DNA of 64,000 bases, from IMG/VR virus record IMGVR_UViG_3300018080_000165, positions 12,078-76,077 of that record; one strand, given 5' to 3'. Position 1 is the stretch's first letter. Every line of letters begins with the position of its first letter. The notes below the pieces were generated by a model. That model did no database searches and had not been told where the DNA came from. It saw only the letters and a program-made list of their open reading frames with translations. This document shows, piece by piece, positions 27,721 through 60,275 of this stretch. The translations under genes and the position numbers were made by a program. This DNA is from a virus.

Positions 27721-28309
27721 CCCTCACTCGTTTCCGTTTCCACTTTGCCACTCGAATGCAATCAAGCGGCATGAAATTTTCTTCTAACAATCCCATTACA
27801 CTGTCTCCAAAAGTCTTTTCAATTTCAATATCGGTCATTCGCGTTGTTACGACTGTTGGAAGAACTTGCTTATCCCTGAATTTCAGCACGTCATAAAACG
27901 CTGCAACCATTCCATCGTTGATAGCATACTTATCCGCTTGATGCTCTAGCTTCAATCCATCAATAATGAGAAAATCTATTCCTAGGATTTCATCAAACGC
28001 TGTTTCATCGAAGTTGCCTGTGTCGAATTTCAAAGCTGTGAGTTCTGAAAGCGAAAGAAGCTGGACTTTGAATCCATAAGCCAAAGCAGACATGCCGATC
28101 AAGTTTGCAAGCAAGCTCTTTCCGCTTTGATCCGCTCCTTGAATCAAAAGTCCTTCGCCCTTTGAAGCCTTGGACTTCATGTACTTCATGTAGCTTCGAA
28201 CAACCTTCCGTTCTTTTGAATTCCCGAGGAAGTTCTTCAACGACTTCCCAAGGAACTTTTTGCTGAAGCCGATTTGAAGCAACTGCGTTTCGGTCATTTC
28301 AACTTCCAT
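27698..28309 (-). CDS. DnaC/IstB-like helicase loader ATPase
   Basis: GADQSGKS Walker A, FLIIDG, PTVVTT. Confidence 0.8.
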   Translation of the reverse strand: MEVEMTETQLLQIGFSKKFLGKSLKNFLGNSKERKVVRSYMKYMKSKASKGEGLLIQGADQSGKSLLANLIGMSALAYGFKVQLLSLSELTALKFDTGNFDETAFDEILGIDFLIIDGLKLEHQADKYAINDGMVAAFYDVLKFRDKQVLPTVVTTRMTDIEIEKTFGDSVMGLLEENFMPLDCIRVAKWKRKRVRDDDGTDE

Positions 28310-28387
28310 GTTGAATCCTCCCAAGAACGCGCGCACGCGCATAAAAGAAGACTTCAATGACATCCTCTGTTACGATAGTAACATAGG

Positions 28388-28430
28388 TGTCTCTATATAT
28401 CACGAGCGAAGCGAGTGATATATAGAGACA
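28388..28430. repeat. Perfect 16-bp inverted repeat in AT-rich gap (candidate origin)
   Basis: TGTCTCTATATATCAC-GAGCGAAGCGA-GTGATATATAGAGACA. Confidence 0.8.
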
Positions 28431-28477
28431 TATTATAATAATTATATTGCGTATGCAGTGTACTAGTACAAGAAGGT

Positions 28478-46460: not shown

Positions 46461-46470
46461 CTCCCGTGAT

Positions 46471-46520
46471 AAATGAAAGAGAGAGAGTGAGGTTCAAGGC
46501 CCTCACTCCCTCTCTCCTTT
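46471..46520 (-). terminator. Hairpin/terminator after tail tube gene
   Basis: GAGAGGGAGTGAGG...CCTCACTCTCTCTC then TTTCATTT. Confidence 0.6.
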
Positions 46521-46554
46521 TCGGACAGTAACAGCCGACAGCACATGCTATCGA

Positions 46555-51726: not shown

Positions 51727-52542
51727 CTAGACGAAGGTGACTTTCTTCTGCCCTTGCGAAAGAACCGCCAACGCAGCGGTATTGCTTCCAACACGAGCAG
51801 TCACGTAGACATCTTCCGCCGCCGTGTCGGCGACGTAGCCGCTCACTTTCCCGTCAGCGTCACTCAACATCTCCACACCATCGTTTCCACCTGCCTCCGT
51901 GTCAAGAAGTTGACCAAGAGACATAAGGCCAAGAGCCGTGGTAGCGATGACAACTCCAGAAGCATCCAACGCGGACAGGAACACTTTCTTGTTGGAAAGA
52001 ACATTTCCTTCCTGATCCTGCACGGTGAACTCAAAAGCCCCGCCCGCTTGATCCGCACCACCAACAGCACTTCCCGGAGCAACGGCAGTAGTGAAAACAC
52101 CAGCCAACTTCGCGGCAGCAGCGCCAGTGAAATACATCTTGAAACGACTGGAAGGCATTCGCGCGTTCAGCCGAAGCGTTCCACCGTTGTCTGACGCGGC
52201 GATGTACTTGTCGAAGACGGCATTCGCGGCAAGAAGCGCGGCAAGTTCAGCCGCCGTGGTCGCGGCAGGCGTAGCGCCCACAAGACCATCGATGGAGACT
52301 TTCTTGTACGAAGCCCCGTTGTCTTCGCTGAAGTACGTGTTGAGAAGTTGGTCGGCAGTCACACTCATGTCGTAAGTGCCCGCCCCGGCATCGTGATTGG
52401 TCGCGCCACTGTGCTTTGTGACACCACCAAGGTCCGCTTCGTCAAGAACGCCGCCAATGACTTCAACAGGCGGCGATTCACGTTGAGGTTTATACCCGTC
52501 TCCGAAGACATTTGGATCGGCATCGTTGATTTGTCGGCTCAT
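51727..52542 (-). CDS. Putative head decoration/virion protein
   Basis: Ala/Gly/Thr-rich, follows capsid gene. Confidence 0.65.
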   Translation of the reverse strand: MSRQINDADPNVFGDGYKPQRESPPVEVIGGVLDEADLGGVTKHSGATNHDAGAGTYDMSVTADQLLNTYFSEDNGASYKKVSIDGLVGATPAATTAAELAALLAANAVFDKYIAASDNGGTLRLNARMPSSRFKMYFTGAAAAKLAGVFTTAVAPGSAVGGADQAGGAFEFTVQDQEGNVLSNKKVFLSALDASGVVIATTALGLMSLGQLLDTEAGGNDGVEMLSDADGKVSGYVADTAAEDVYVTARVGSNTAALAVLSQGQKKVTFV

Positions 52543-52554
52543 CCGATTTCTCCT

Positions 52555-52812
52555 TTTAGCACAAAGGAGGATAGGAACGGCTTTGAAACACTCGCCACCG
52601 TTGCCCCTATCCCCCTATGTACTGCGCTCCACAAAACAAGGCAAGGCCGGATTCCGGGGACCATTTGGTCTAAGCGGGTCATGCCCGCCCCCTCCACGCC
52701 ATCATGCACGTACCGGCCAGGGGTCTGAGGAAAGTTCCCCGTGGTGGACATGGAGTGCAGTCCTTTGTGCCACCACGGCATGATGTAACCTCCCTGCACG
52801 GTTGCCTTGCTC
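52555..52812 (-). ncRNA. Candidate structured RNA downstream of capsid gene
   Basis: Nested 8-9 bp helices, a 6-bp pseudoknot and a long 3' hairpin. Confidence 0.55.
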
Positions 52813-52814
52813 AC

Positions 52815-53777
52815 TCACGCAGACTCCAACACCAGACCATGCGCACTTTCGACCAAGCCAGTACCCCAAATGCCGTAGTAGGCAATGGAGTGCTTCCGCC
52901 CATGGTCCTTCACGCCATCGTCCCGCATTTCCGCTTCCAGGGAAATGGCAAGGCCAATCACGTGATCCCCGACGATGAGGGCCGAGTAAACATCGGCGTT
53001 CGTGCTGAACACGCCAGCGTCCACGCCGGTATCCTCGTTGTCGGTGTAGATCGATCCATCGGTGCTCAGAATCTTCCGAACCTGAGTCGTCTCGATGAAA
53101 CGAACGTCTTCGATGCGCCCGATCTCCCCAAGGAAAATCTGATCGGGAGCGCCGTAGTTCGCGGCATTCACCCACGCCTGATCCCGACGAAGGAACTTCG
53201 CCTGATGAGGATGGATGAAACAAATGTAGGCATCCCCGTTGAACTTGGGAGCCTTGTTGGTTGCCAGGGTGGAAACAGCATCACGAATCAAGTCCACGTC
53301 GAAAGTGTCGGAACTCGTGATAGCGGCACGTCCGCTTCTGCCTCGCGCGTACAGCGCGCCAGGAACGGTGTACAGCGTATCGCGGATTTCCGCGTCCCGC
53401 GTCTTGGCGAAGTGCATTCCGAGCAGTTGCGCGGAACTCGCCAAGATGTCATCGAAAGACGAGCGAAGCAACAGTTCGCTCACCCCAATGGCTTTGCCTC
53501 GCTCGCCAACAGCGATGCTAATCTGCGAAGCGGCCAGGGCATCCGGCACGATGTCAACGTTCTCGGTGAGAACATTCGAGCCGGTGAGGGAAGAATACTT
53601 TAGGAACTTGATCGTCAGGCCCGGAAGGACGTTCAACTCTTCCTTCACACTCGCCACCTGTTCAAAGCGCAGCAAGGGTTGCGCCTGGAAGATGATTTCC
53701 TGCGAGTACACTTCCAGGATCGCTTCAGGAAGAGGAGTAGCGCCGCCACCAGACGCGATTGCGGTTGCAATGGCCAT
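52815..53777 (-). CDS. Major capsid protein (N4-gp56-like)
   Basis: FEQVA...G.TIKF.KY..L, HPHQ, GEIGRIEDVRFIET. Confidence 0.9.
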   Translation of the reverse strand: MAIATAIASGGGATPLPEAILEVYSQEIIFQAQPLLRFEQVASVKEELNVLPGLTIKFLKYSSLTGSNVLTENVDIVPDALAASQISIAVGERGKAIGVSELLLRSSFDDILASSAQLLGMHFAKTRDAEIRDTLYTVPGALYARGRSGRAAITSSDTFDVDLIRDAVSTLATNKAPKFNGDAYICFIHPHQAKFLRRDQAWVNAANYGAPDQIFLGEIGRIEDVRFIETTQVRKILSTDGSIYTDNEDTGVDAGVFSTNADVYSALIVGDHVIGLAISLEAEMRDDGVKDHGRKHSIAYYGIWGTGLVESAHGLVLESA

Positions 53778-55198: not shown

Positions 55199-55236
55199 TA
55201 GTGTACCGATTATTCGGTTATCCCCGAAAATGTCAA
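55199..55236 (-). promoter_or_regulatory. Putative promoter overlapped by palindromic operator
   Basis: TTGACA-N16-AATAAT; -10 lies in centre of TGTACCG-N6-CGGT. Confidence 0.5.
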
Positions 55237-56864
55237 GGACTTTCTCCCCCGCCTACACCCTCTTCCGTCTTCTCCATTTCGGACAGTAGCTCGTCATAGG
55301 CTGTATCCTGCGCCTGGAAAGAGGCTTCCAGTTCAGGCAGGTTCAATCCGTATGAGCCGAGCGCGTACACGTTCAGATTCACGGGACGCTCGCCGAGAGC
55401 CGCCACAGCGCGTTCAACGTCTTCGGCCAACGTCTGTCTTTGATCTGCGAGGATTTCCAGCATCCTCCTCTTCACGTCCTTGACACCGAGAGTTCTCAGT
55501 GCTCCCGCTCTGGACTCCAATCCTTGCTCCATCTTGGCGACAAGCATGTCCACCACGAGTTTTTCATCTCGCGGCAACGGGGAGTTGAACTCAATTCCCG
55601 TTTCGTACATCCTCGTCTTGTCCTGGATTTGTTCTCCGATCTTGACGCCGAAGCGTTGATCCAAAATCTGAAGAACGATCTCGTTCGCCTGGACGATGGA
55701 ACTGCCGTATGTCGTGTACTTCCTTCGAGTCTTTTCGATCAAAGGAAGATAGGTCACTTCCAACGCGGCGGCAGATGTGTTGCTGATTTCTTGGATCGAT
55801 CCCAAGGAGTTCTCGGGCGTATTGGAGATTTCATGCAAGGACAGCTTCAGGAACTTCAAGTGATTCACTGCCGCTTCAAGTTCCCCTTCCAGTCCCAAGT
55901 TCTCCACTCTCGCCTTTTCAGGAAGGCCGGACCATACCTGATTCGGCGACTTCTCAAGTTGCTGCGCTCTCGCTCCGAAGATGAGGGTTGTCGGAGCGGA
56001 ATGATACTTGATGATCGAATCGATGTCGTTAGCCGCTTCATTGATGTGCTCATTCAAAGGAATGATGTCGTCAATGTCGGACTCACCAAAGAACGAACTT
56101 GCGATAGGGATGTTCCTCGTATGGACGACAGGAATCCGGCCAAGGAAGTTCTTCCTTCTGGAACCCGGAATCTCGTCCCGGTTCCAATACTCAACGACTT
56201 CTCTCCGGGTGATGATGATGGAGTACAATCCAAGCGGGCGTCCGCTTCTCAATGTCATGGCCCGCAAAGGTCTGTCCGAAGAGTTGAACACAGTCGGGAA
56301 CTGGATGAGAACGGCATACATCTCCCGTTCGTCGCTTTCGTCGTAGATGGGGTGGACATAAGAACTGTTTATATTGCGAATGACGATCTTTTGCTGATCG
56401 AGAGGGAGAGGCTTTCCGTCCACACCACGATCTTCGACGGTGATGTAAAGAAAAGCATCGCCTGTCACAGCGCCCATCTGTCCGTGTTCCCAAAGCATCT
56501 TGTCTCTATCGTTGGCTCTCCACACCATATCGAGAAGCGGAACAATGTTTTCGTTCCCCGGTGGTGTAGTGATCTTAAACCCGGAGCCAAAGAGCCAATC
56601 GACGGACTTGTTTATAATGGGACGACAGTAGTTGATGGCGAGTTTTCTTTGCCCGTCAATGGTTCGAACTTCGAAGTGTTCTCCGCGATAAAAGCGCCAG
56701 TTGCGCTTGTAGCGAGCAAGGCGTGTATGCGTGTAGTCTCGGGAGTGATCTTCAAAGAAAGTTCCGGTAACGTCCAAGACATCGTTCCCCGACAAAGCAG
56801 AATCGAGATACGTATCGGTACGTCCCGTGAAAGTCTTTCTCAAGAAGCCAAGCACTTTGCTCAT
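55233..56864 (-). CDS. Portal protein (SPP1 gp6-like)
   Basis: FY.G.H, INYC, IPVVH..N, GESDI, SNTSAAAL. Confidence 0.88.
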   Translation of the reverse strand: MSKVLGFLRKTFTGRTDTYLDSALSGNDVLDVTGTFFEDHSRDYTHTRLARYKRNWRFYRGEHFEVRTIDGQRKLAINYCRPIINKSVDWLFGSGFKITTPPGNENIVPLLDMVWRANDRDKMLWEHGQMGAVTGDAFLYITVEDRGVDGKPLPLDQQKIVIRNINSSYVHPIYDESDEREMYAVLIQFPTVFNSSDRPLRAMTLRSGRPLGLYSIIITRREVVEYWNRDEIPGSRRKNFLGRIPVVHTRNIPIASSFFGESDIDDIIPLNEHINEAANDIDSIIKYHSAPTTLIFGARAQQLEKSPNQVWSGLPEKARVENLGLEGELEAAVNHLKFLKLSLHEISNTPENSLGSIQEISNTSAAALEVTYLPLIEKTRRKYTTYGSSIVQANEIVLQILDQRFGVKIGEQIQDKTRMYETGIEFNSPLPRDEKLVVDMLVAKMEQGLESRAGALRTLGVKDVKRRMLEILADQRQTLAEDVERAVAALGERPVNLNVYALGSYGLNLPELEASFQAQDTAYDELLSEMEKTEEGVGGGESP

Positions 56865-56905: not shown

Positions 56906-57112
56906 CTACTTAGCCCTCTTGCGTCCAGCGGCAGCCATCTTGGCCATCTTCTTTGCGCCGAACTTTTTCCGGCCTATGACAGCGGCCAAAGCCTTTGGGT
57001 CTTCAATCCCGTCTTCCTGTCTTCCCAAGGATCGTTGAAGCCGTTGAAAACGTTTCCCGGTTCCCAACTTGGGCAGCTTCTTTTTCTGTCCACGTCCGCC
57101 ACGCTGTGCCAT
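56906..57112 (-). CDS. Small basic protein
   Basis: DPKALAAVIGRKKFGAKKMAKMAAAGRKR. Confidence 0.65.
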   Translation of the reverse strand: MAQRGGRGQKKKLPKLGTGKRFQRLQRSLGRQEDGIEDPKALAAVIGRKKFGAKKMAKMAAAGRKRAK

Positions 57113-59880
57113 TACGCTATTACCCCCGCTCCTACCATGAAGTTCTGTTGAACTTCGATTTCGCCCGTGTCTGCCGGTTCCTGCGCGCCGTAGGCGGCAA
57201 GCATGAGAGAAACAGGGTAGTCGTCATGCGCTCCCGGTTCGTCTGGATGCTCGCACACCATGTAGTTGTTCTTGTACAACTTTCTCAAGTCCAACATCTC
57301 TCCCACGAAGCGCCTGAAGTGTCTTGACTTTCTCGCCTTCTCTCCGGCAGGGAAGGAGAGTCTACCCGACATGAGATCGGAATGCAATATCTTAAAACCA
57401 TCCGACTTCGAAGCCGGGGTGAACTTCACTCCCTGCACTTCGACAAATCCCATTTCAGGCGTTCCATCCGCCCCCTTCCCGCGATCAAACTCGCTGTAGT
57501 ACACGGTGAACTTGTCAAGTCCCCATTCCCCCACACCTGTTGCATCGAGAGTGATCTTCCTCAGTCCTTTGAAATTGGAGAGGAAGTTCACAATCTCGTG
57601 GAATTGGTGCTCGTAGTTGTCGCCGAGAAGCATGTGCCAAGCAACGACACGCTTGTTGTAGGCGATCCAATGGAAACTCCCTTCAGGCGTGTCAACCCAT
57701 TCATCAGCGACGGGAGTTCTCCAATCCACGTCCATTACGGTAATCACACTTGGATCGTGGATTTTTCCGAAGTCAATCCCGGCGATCTGAGTTGTCACAC
57801 GAGAAGATCGGTGCCAAATCTCGTGATAGCCGCCGTGCGTCTTAGCGATTGCGGGCGTCATAAGCTGCTTGTCCGTGATGAACTGTCCACGCTCAAGCAA
57901 CCATTCGCAGCAATAGCTAAGACGGAACTCATCGCTGTCTTCACCAAGGCGAACTTTTTCTTTCTTGATGTAGTCCCGATACATGGAGTTGTACTTTTGA
58001 CAAACAAGATAGTCGTATCGGTAGTGGTTCTTCGCTTCGCCTTGCGCGTACAAACGCTGATTGGACTTGATCGACGTGTAGAAATCAGACTTCTCCGTCG
58101 AACAAGTTCCGATCTTCACAATGACGCCGTTGTACGCGGCAACCATGGGATGAAGGCTGTTACCTGTTACGATTCCATTAGCAATGACAAAATGCCGTTC
58201 ATCTGGAACAGTCACGCAGTATGTGGGTTTCTTTCCGATATGTCTGACGGATTTAACACTAACAAACTGTATGTCTTCAGGATAAAACTGACTTCTACTC
58301 CGCCCTCTTTTTCCTTGAATAGTGCGGATACCCGCTTCAAGAGCGTCTTGTTTTGGCCCTAAGTTAAACTGCTTATGAAATTCACGCACATCTTCAACAG
58401 ACTTTATATGCAGTCGGTACATATAGGTGCCTAGACGTTCTTTTATTCCCGGCAAATTCCCTGTGCTTTCCACGAAACCTTCGAACTTAGCACATTGAAT
58501 GCCGAAGTGTAACAAAGTTTTCCGAAGGCCGTCTACAAGATACTCTGAACAGTTGGAAAATGAAACAACAGGTTTCACAGTCGGATTTTCTATACTGCCG
58601 TCAGCTATAATCAACCCGGAAGCAAGTCCGCGCAGAAATTCTAAGCTCCAAGGAAGATTGGGTATACGCTTGTTCTCACGCTTTGCCCCCCAAACGCCGA
58701 TTTTTTTCAGCCATTCTGTCAACTTATTAGAGCCTTTCTTGTTTCCAGGCGAAGTAAGCCCACATTCAAGCATTCCACTAGATTGCTCGTTATAGACTAC
58801 AGGACGCACGCCGAATTCATGCGGACATATACGGTCAAGTAGTTTCTTTACAGAAGGCTCAACAATTATTTGCGGCTTATCGCCAGTGAAACATCCGTCA
58901 CCAAGAAGCAAGCCAAGCAAGAATCCTCGATCAAAGTTCCCTAAGACACCTGCTGCATTATTCAATCGTGTAGGAACAGCCATTTGCCAGCCGGGCTGGA
59001 TTTCGTAAGTCAAGGCTTCGAAAGGAACCCTCCGAGTTCTGCTGCGCACAAAATGCCGGTGATTGGCCGTAACGTCTAAGTATCTTCCTCCTGCTAATGT
59101 CACACGATACACGGGTTGCACACCATTATCATGGTACTCAATATCACGAGACTCAAAAAAGCCAGAAGGAGTCAACACAGGCAGTTTCTTTTTGACAACT
59201 TCTTCCACAGGAACTTCGATTCCTCCAGAAGTAATGAAAAGCGTGCCTTCAGCAAAACACTTCCTCACCTTCAGCGTCCCGATGTCTTGCGCCTCATCAA
59301 GAATCAGGATGTGGTACGTGTCGCCTTCGATGTGTGACTGTTCCGAAGCCGACTGAGAACGAATCCGGCTTCCATTCGAAAGACGAGTCTTGTTGGCGTT
59401 GCCGATGTCAAGGGCAACGTTCAATTCGGCGGCTACTTCCTTCGTGGTGTCCGTTTCGAGCGTGTCACGAAGGCGACTGTAAACGATGTCAGCCTGTTCC
59501 TGTTTCGGCGCGTAGATGCCGACAACGACACCGTACTTGTAGCCGCGATAGTTGCCTTGCTCGTCGGTACAGTTCAAGCGCCAATCGTCTTCGAAGATTT
59601 TCATTCTCGCAAGAAGCGGAAGAATCAAGCAGCACGCGGCGAGAATGTCCGCAATCAACTGAGACTTGCCGGACTGCCTAGCCCAAAGCGCGGTAAGCAT
59701 GTCGCCGTCATGGAGAAGAACGGCTTCCACAAAACGATAGCCGAACTCCTTCTGATACTTGAAGTGCCTCTTCTGAGAAAGGATTTCGGCAAGACGGAGA
59801 ATACGCAAAACAAGACTATCCAACGGCACAGTCGGTTGACTGGTTTCCCGCGTGCAGACACGCGGTGCCATGGGTTCCAT
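57112..59880 (-). CDS. Terminase large subunit (intein-containing)
   Basis: ARQSGKS, ILDEAQD, GIDFG..HD, DATGVG, HDDYP. Confidence 0.92.
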   Translation of the reverse strand: MEPMAPRVCTRETSQPTVPLDSLVLRILRLAEILSQKRHFKYQKEFGYRFVEAVLLHDGDMLTALWARQSGKSQLIADILAACCLILPLLARMKIFEDDWRLNCTDEQGNYRGYKYGVVVGIYAPKQEQADIVYSRLRDTLETDTTKEVAAELNVALDIGNANKTRLSNGSRIRSQSASEQSHIEGDTYHILILDEAQDIGTLKVRKCFAEGTLFITSGGIEVPVEEVVKKKLPVLTPSGFFESRDIEYHDNGVQPVYRVTLAGGRYLDVTANHRHFVRSRTRRVPFEALTYEIQPGWQMAVPTRLNNAAGVLGNFDRGFLLGLLLGDGCFTGDKPQIIVEPSVKKLLDRICPHEFGVRPVVYNEQSSGMLECGLTSPGNKKGSNKLTEWLKKIGVWGAKRENKRIPNLPWSLEFLRGLASGLIIADGSIENPTVKPVVSFSNCSEYLVDGLRKTLLHFGIQCAKFEGFVESTGNLPGIKERLGTYMYRLHIKSVEDVREFHKQFNLGPKQDALEAGIRTIQGKRGRSRSQFYPEDIQFVSVKSVRHIGKKPTYCVTVPDERHFVIANGIVTGNSLHPMVAAYNGVIVKIGTCSTEKSDFYTSIKSNQRLYAQGEAKNHYRYDYLVCQKYNSMYRDYIKKEKVRLGEDSDEFRLSYCCEWLLERGQFITDKQLMTPAIAKTHGGYHEIWHRSSRVTTQIAGIDFGKIHDPSVITVMDVDWRTPVADEWVDTPEGSFHWIAYNKRVVAWHMLLGDNYEHQFHEIVNFLSNFKGLRKITLDATGVGEWGLDKFTVYYSEFDRGKGADGTPEMGFVEVQGVKFTPASKSDGFKILHSDLMSGRLSFPAGEKARKSRHFRRFVGEMLDLRKLYKNNYMVCEHPDEPGAHDDYPVSLMLAAYGAQEPADTGEIEVQQNFMVGAGVIA
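58159..59259 (-). mobile_element. Intein with LAGLIDADG homing endonuclease (367 aa)
   Basis: K|CFAEGT start, TANH block B, LGLLLGDG and LIIADG, ends VTGN|S; lower GC. Confidence 0.92.
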
Positions 59881-59888
59881 AAGACTGT

Positions 59889-60275
59889 TCACGGATTCCG
59901 CGTCTCCAGTTCCTTCTGAATGACTTTCACGTCTATTTGCATCTGTTGCTGGCGCGTGTCCATCTTTGTGTTCCACGCCTTCTGTTCTTCCATGTGCCGC
60001 TCGATTCTCTTGTACGCTTTCTCGGTGATCTCCTTGTTGTGCTCGTTATCTTTCTGCAAGTCCTTGATGTTGCCGTGGTTTTCCCAACTCCGCTTGTTGA
60101 CCGGCAAAAGGCGCTCTTCGTTTCTCTGAATGCCTTCTTTGTTCTCTTTCACATCCCGCTGCATCTGAAGAAACGTGTAGTAGAATCCGATGATCGCGGC
60201 GCATAGCGCGAGCACGAACTTAATCAATTCAAATCCATGCTTCGACGCATGTTTCTTCAGCGTTGAAGTGTTCAT
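59889..60275 (-). CDS. Single-TM coiled-coil protein
   Basis: LIKFVLALCAAIIGFYYTFL then heptads. Confidence 0.65.
   Translation of the reverse strand: MNTSTLKKHASKHGFELIKFVLALCAAIIGFYYTFLQMQRDVKENKEGIQRNEERLLPVNKRSWENHGNIKDLQKDNEHNKEITEKAYKRIERHMEEQKAWNTKMDTRQQQMQIDVKVIQKELETRNP

Follow-up and report, generated by a model that had tools for sequence, protein, structure and literature searches.

The terminator T-phi of T7, located after gene 10, is an example of a terminator behind a phage major capsid gene. The ssRNA phage Q-beta produces its A1 protein by read-through of the coat-gene UGA, and the resulting extension is conserved and essential. The read-through signal of MuLV lies about 8 nt past its stop. 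Morons are small units inserted between phage structural genes, and among structured RNAs, a P3/L3 hairpin is a requirement of the HDV-like ribozyme. In T3, T7, Lactobacillus phage A2, and Listeria phages A118/A500/PSA, capsid C-terminal extensions are produced via ribosomal frameshifting and often add Ig-like domains (PMC5009743). Read-through pseudoknots of the MuLV type are covered by the same source (PMC5009743).

Here, we analyze the spacer between the major capsid protein gene and the next gene of a metagenomic tailed phage and compare it with these systems. As at post-capsid terminators, a strong GC-rich hairpin immediately follows the most abundant structural gene and precedes the next gene's own Shine-Dalgarno (SD) sequence, although the U-run is weak or missing in this clade. 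The capsid gene ends in UGA with an in-frame open extension, as in Q-beta; unlike in Q-beta, the closest relatives do not have the extension, which appears to be non-coding. The likeness to frameshift-extended capsids is that a tailed-phage capsid gene may be followed by additional coding sequence and has an Ig-like gene nearby, whereas here the Ig-like protein is encoded separately, behind an SD of its own. Downstream of the stop, an H-type pseudoknot topology can be drawn, as in MuLV, but its first stem is a 6-bp helix at chance level that begins 16 nt past the stop and faces a competing nested fold that is 7.7 kcal/mol better. Finally, the spacer resembles a moron locus in that a lineage-specific insertion with an SD-led small ORF inside lies between two head genes; unlike for morons, no promoter was found, and the ORF has a weak coding signal and neither a stop nor a terminator of its own.

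Results

The window, i.e., the whole 64,000-nt stretch of DNA analyzed here, comes from a 76-kb IMG/VR virus record that is linear and approximately 79% complete. All genes surrounding the post-capsid spacer are encoded on the minus strand (Table 1), and more head and tail genes lie 3' of the 271-aa gene that follows the spacer. The intein in the large terminase carries a LAGLIDADG homing-endonuclease domain, with Pfam matches at residues 287-605. The C-terminus of the capsid protein aligns to the same end point as the capsids of its relatives. Of 20 genes of this phage, 9 end in TGA, more than in any other stop codon. The use of TGA as a sense codon was rejected because the capsid has the same end point as its homologues and table 11 leaves long ORFs intact. 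The phage occurs in sediment and seawater samples. The stretch is present in nine public DNA runs, in which all contigs are identical and thus provide no natural variation; no RNA run is among those listed.

The 271-aa gene has homologues in two relatives, L116 (56% identical) and L001 (50% identical), and is confined to this small clade; when it was used as search bait, the same two relatives were recovered and none further. The structure model of its product was unusable (pLDDT 32.5). The AAGGAG preceding this gene is unpaired in the predicted fold of the spacer, and the same arrangement is found in L116 and L001.

Table 1 Positions of the spacer elements and of the surrounding genes, in window coordinates.
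Feature	Position	Strand	Details
Large terminase with LAGLIDADG intein	57112-59976	minus	
SPP1-type portal	55233-56864	minus	
Probable scaffold, 339 aa	53814-54833	minus	
Major capsid protein gene, 320 aa	52815-53777	minus	Pfam Phage_capsid_3; PHROG 1357 major head protein, E 2.5e-55
Capsid stop TGA	52815-52817	minus	
Spacer between capsid gene and 271-aa gene, 272 nt	52543-52814	minus	
Open frame, 91 codons, capsid frame	52539-52814	minus	Ends in the TGA of the ATGA overlap (52539-52542)
5' domain	52634-52812	minus	P1 closing helix, 9-bp hairpin 52739-52778, three small hairpins
Internal SD GGGAGG	52789-52794	minus	7 nt from ATG 52779-52781; gives the 80-codon version of the open frame
Post-capsid (3') stem-loop	52558-52623	minus	About 23 bp interrupted by one mismatch and an internal loop; followed by a weak U-run
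SD AAGGAG of the 271-aa gene	52550-52555	minus	7 nt before ATG 52540-52542
271-aa gene	51727-52542	minus	Weak Ig-like match (Big_1, E 5e-5, below cut-off)

Searching viral, metagenome and genome collections with the capsid, we obtained about 150 related loci. L116 is the closest relative, with a capsid 82% identical to that of our phage, followed by L001 and L002 at 72%, and the gene order, including the 271-aa gene, is common to all three. In L116 and L001, the capsid ends at the same residue but with TAA, and the next in-frame stop follows 4 codons on (L116) or 24 codons on (L001). TAA is also the capsid stop in most of approximately 80 relatives, often with tandem or nearby in-frame stops. 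The spacer measures 109 and 129 nt in the closest relatives compared with 272 nt in our phage, and in L116, L001 and L002 it retains nothing but the 3' stem-loop and the SD of the 271-aa gene. The difference is the 5' domain, a lineage-specific insertion of approximately 140-160 nt for which the spacers of the relatives offer too little room; since two successive relatives lack it, its history is most parsimoniously explained by a gain in the lineage of this phage. At 59% capsid identity, relatives carry a spacer of 25 nt and do not have the 271-aa gene. In L207, L209-L213, L215 and L219, a small SD-led ORF (approximately 40-45 aa, Lys/Glu-rich) has been inserted ahead of the gene that follows the capsid gene, approximately 145-148 nt past the capsid stop, indicating that the post-capsid position accepts small insertions. 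The 7-kb contig of L116 (CAZWDF010000055.1) was assigned to a Candidatus Saccharibacteria MAG by binning, which is a weak host clue and possibly a binning artefact.

The earlier note on this DNA had described a long 3' hairpin beside the ribosome-binding site of the next gene, and this hairpin proved to be both present and conserved. Its helix 52606-52623/52558-52575 consists of 6 bp, one mismatch and 12 bp, followed by an inner 5-bp helix, and the stem-loop as a whole is clearly non-random (z -4.8), with none of 200 shuffles folding as well. The stem-loops of L116 and L001 differ in sequence but fold alike (z -4.0 and -4.1, respectively). In an alignment of the three phages, which comprises only three independent sequences and from which the structure itself was derived, 8 of the 21 predicted pairs are compensated (both sides changed) and 92% of cells are paired, while none of 500 shuffles was as good and slid controls gave 0-1 compensated pairs. 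Covariation, one of the checks proposed earlier, thus favors the stem-loop. Beyond this trio, the post-capsid spacer folds with a z below -2 in 25 of the 32 relatives whose spacer is at least 47 nt long (median -3.7); nearly all of these relatives have a single long GC-rich hairpin, several with a clear U-run. In our phage, only UUUGUGCU stands behind the 3' stem, and a terminator consensus scan made no call.

Given the recurrence of post-capsid hairpins, the covariation and a comparable hairpin behind the putative major tail gene of the same phage (46461-46554), we interpret 52558-52623 as a stem-loop of the type that commonly follows abundant structural genes. Judged from sequence comparison, this stem-loop is the conserved, functional piece of the spacer, and its role is most likely that of a terminator or stabilizer. 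At the RNA level, it would serve as a partial terminator and/or as a structure that protects the 3' end (exonuclease-blocking, possibly of the RNase III type), thereby making the capsid message more abundant than the message of the genes behind it, and the 271-aa gene would be translated from its own free Shine-Dalgarno. As the U-run is weak or missing in this clade, the stem-loop may stabilize or process RNA rather than terminate transcription. Of the earlier proposals, that of an RNA element that could set capsid against downstream expression keeps some support, for the 3' stem-loop with its compensatory changes and family-wide occurrence, but not for the 5' domain.

In the 5' domain, all four helices named in the earlier note pair when checked base by base: 52802-52810/52636-52644 (9 bp, one G-U), 52778-52785/52700-52707 (8 bp, perfect), 52770-52778/52739-52747 (9 bp, perfect) and the pseudoknot stem 52755-52760/52794-52799 (6 bp, perfect). 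The fold built from them stands only in part. P1, the 9-bp hairpin and the three small hairpins are robust, with ensemble probabilities of 0.89, 0.95 and 0.90-0.99, respectively, whereas the 8-bp helix competes with a better nested fold and has an ensemble probability of 0.001, and a fold forced to include it is 7.7 kcal/mol worse than the minimum free energy (MFE) fold. The pseudoknot stem does pair, but at chance level, as 9 perfect 6-bp helices are seen where 4.8 are expected in shuffles (P 0.05). It is worth about -7.8 kcal/mol before loop penalties, which would bring a pseudoknotted fold at best to parity with the MFE fold.

In the predicted fold of the 5' domain, the long P1 helix encloses several GC-rich hairpins. 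With statistics computed on 52630-52817 (188 nt), this fold is moderately non-random, with an MFE of -80.8 kcal/mol and a z of -2.2 (5 of 200 shuffles are as good). Three perfect helices of at least 8 bp, all nested, are present against 0.37 expected (P about 0.01), and the domain ranks in the top 1% of 679 genome windows of the same size after GC correction. The fold is slightly better on the minus strand (z -2.4 vs -1.8).

Searches for a counterpart of the 5' domain covered DNA and RNA families. The domain is present as a single copy in its own 76-kb record, and no similar DNA was detected in approximately 270 retrieved loci or in the whole records of five relatives. In a phage collection, a 2.1-kb query had no match and the 188-nt domain query returned only a 24-nt chance match; a plasmid collection gave no match to the domain, and exact-pattern scans of viral contigs gave chance matches only, with no wider similarity. 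The cmscan run that had been suggested as a check, performed against Rfam 15 with permissive filters and E values up to 10, gave no match inside 52539-52817, and ARAGORN reported no tRNA or tmRNA in the region. By eye, we also rejected a bacterial SECIS element, as no local hairpin is suitably spaced from the stop, and an HDV-like ribozyme, as the pseudoknot topology comes without the P3/L3 hairpin.

These data suggest that the 5' domain is an orphan insertion confined to the lineage of this phage, leaving the capsid frame open by happenstance. We put the chances at about even that the insertion is inert sequence acquired by recombination, and we infer that it lacks a specific function.

The main alternative is that the insertion is a small gene, i.e., that an 80-aa orphan protein is made from the ATG at 52781, coupled to the 271-aa gene via the ATGA overlap, as a moron-like addition between head genes. 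The frame on which this depends, described earlier as staying open for 91 codons after the capsid TGA and ending in that overlap, was confirmed. In addition, the internal ATG is preceded by a consensus SD at ideal spacing that matches the SDs of neighboring genes, gene callers in public collections predict the ORF (as 91 or 80 aa), and L207-type relatives have an SD-led small ORF at the same position. However, codon usage argues against a gene: the 91-codon frame scores 0.04 compared with 0.23 +/- 0.09 in gene windows, 97% of which score higher, and the value of the whole ORF is also reached by 10% of random open frames. The portion between the ATG and the end of the insertion scores 0.03, which lies under the 5th percentile for gene windows, and the part of the ORF that runs through the ancestral hairpin scores -0.09. 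The last third of the ORF is in fact encoded by this hairpin and the SD of the next gene, which are non-coding in the relatives. Compared with 5.8 and 1.84 billion proteins, the 91-aa frame found only identical copies and no homologue; Pfam searches in all frames on both strands at E 10 gave no match, PHROGs gave none, and the ESM Atlas gave no usable match. AF2 returned no confident fold for the 80-aa ORF (pLDDT 58.6), and both its SD and its ATG are paired in the predicted fold. Taken together, we regard a small gene as unlikely, if the first of the alternatives to consider.

In the course of the protein searches, HMMER matches of the 91-aa frame to P0004-P0006 were rejected, as their scores are built up from 4-8 repeated weak matches, the best of which covers 13 of 24 residues. 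P0004 (613 aa) resembles phage fibres and carries at least five tandem repeats of approximately 58 aa that contain TGNTPQTGDxFARxGVSGAGLTNLGD. Residues 25-48 of the frame resemble this repeat at 13 of 24 positions, a similarity that we judged to be chance amplified by repetition.

Since the 5' domain folds better than chance, it could have a function of its own as an RNA private to this lineage, for instance as an additional 3' module that stabilizes or processes the capsid mRNA, as a small regulatory RNA or as a self-cleaving element of a new type. The moderately significant fold with its nested long helices, the slight preference for the minus strand and the position in a non-coding spacer adjoining a conserved RNA hairpin are all consistent with this idea. 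On the other side, the RNA-family and tRNA/tmRNA searches were negative, every collection searched lacks a homologue, and the closest relatives do without the domain. Moreover, a ribosome terminating at the TGA would presumably melt the 5' strand of P1, which lies 3 nt past the stop. We therefore consider a private functional RNA rather improbable. The specific roles put forward in the earlier note for an RNA at this site fared no better, as no evidence was obtained for a ribozyme, for which Rfam gave no match, or for a packaging-type RNA.

A miniature mobile element with P1 formed by its terminal inverted repeats is a very unlikely reading of the insertion. The domain does end in inverted repeats of 9-10 bp and is lacking at the orthologous site in relatives, but no second copy was found in the 76-kb record, in the records of five relatives, in the approximately 270 loci or in the phage and plasmid collections, and we saw no target-site duplication.

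The foremost suggestion of the earlier note, a read-through signal at the capsid stop giving an extended capsid protein, is the least probable reading. In this scenario, the downstream structure would promote programmed read-through of the UGA, so that a minority of subunits would gain a 91-aa C-terminal extension. Although the UGA is followed by G and 91 in-frame open codons, structure begins a few bases past the stop, and recoded capsid extensions are known in tailed phages (albeit via frameshifting; PMC5009743), the extension is not conserved in relatives that end in TAA, some of them with tandem stops, and lack the 5' domain, it has weak codon usage and neither homologues nor a confident fold, 4.7% of dinucleotide shuffles are open for as long, TGA is simply the stop that this phage uses most, and the only pseudoknot stem is at chance level and begins well past the stop. 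Nor is there a hint of a frameshift product, as the other two frames behind the capsid stop remain open for only 1 and 37 codons.

Discussion

On balance, our analysis favors a variable spacer composed of two pieces with different histories, a conserved post-capsid hairpin and an insertion of approximately 150 nt found in this lineage only. If the proposed role of the stem-loop is true, it would be one more case in which tailed phages separate capsid expression from that of the genes behind, an expected finding that is nevertheless useful for annotation. The orphan insertion is a single sequence with modest statistics and would matter only if it were a selected RNA or a newly born gene. We see a fairly low probability that 52634-52812 is a functional element born in this lineage, be it a structured RNA that processes or stabilizes the capsid mRNA or a young gene whose frame runs through the older hairpin. 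More generally, when phage DNA is G-rich, recoding is only weakly supported by a frame that stays open past the capsid UGA.

Two other folded regions of the window, both on the minus strand, came to our attention. At 46461-46554, a 17-bp GC-rich hairpin with a U-run, preceded by a second hairpin of 10 bp (z -6.1), lies in the spacer behind a 271-aa gene at the major-tail-protein position (a putative major tail gene) and has the appearance of a canonical terminator, again behind an abundant structural gene. The most strongly folded genome window after GC correction is 28281-28468 (z -5.3, GC 0.39), which contains a perfect AT-rich hairpin of 16 bp together with additional hairpins; an SD and ATG follow immediately downstream.
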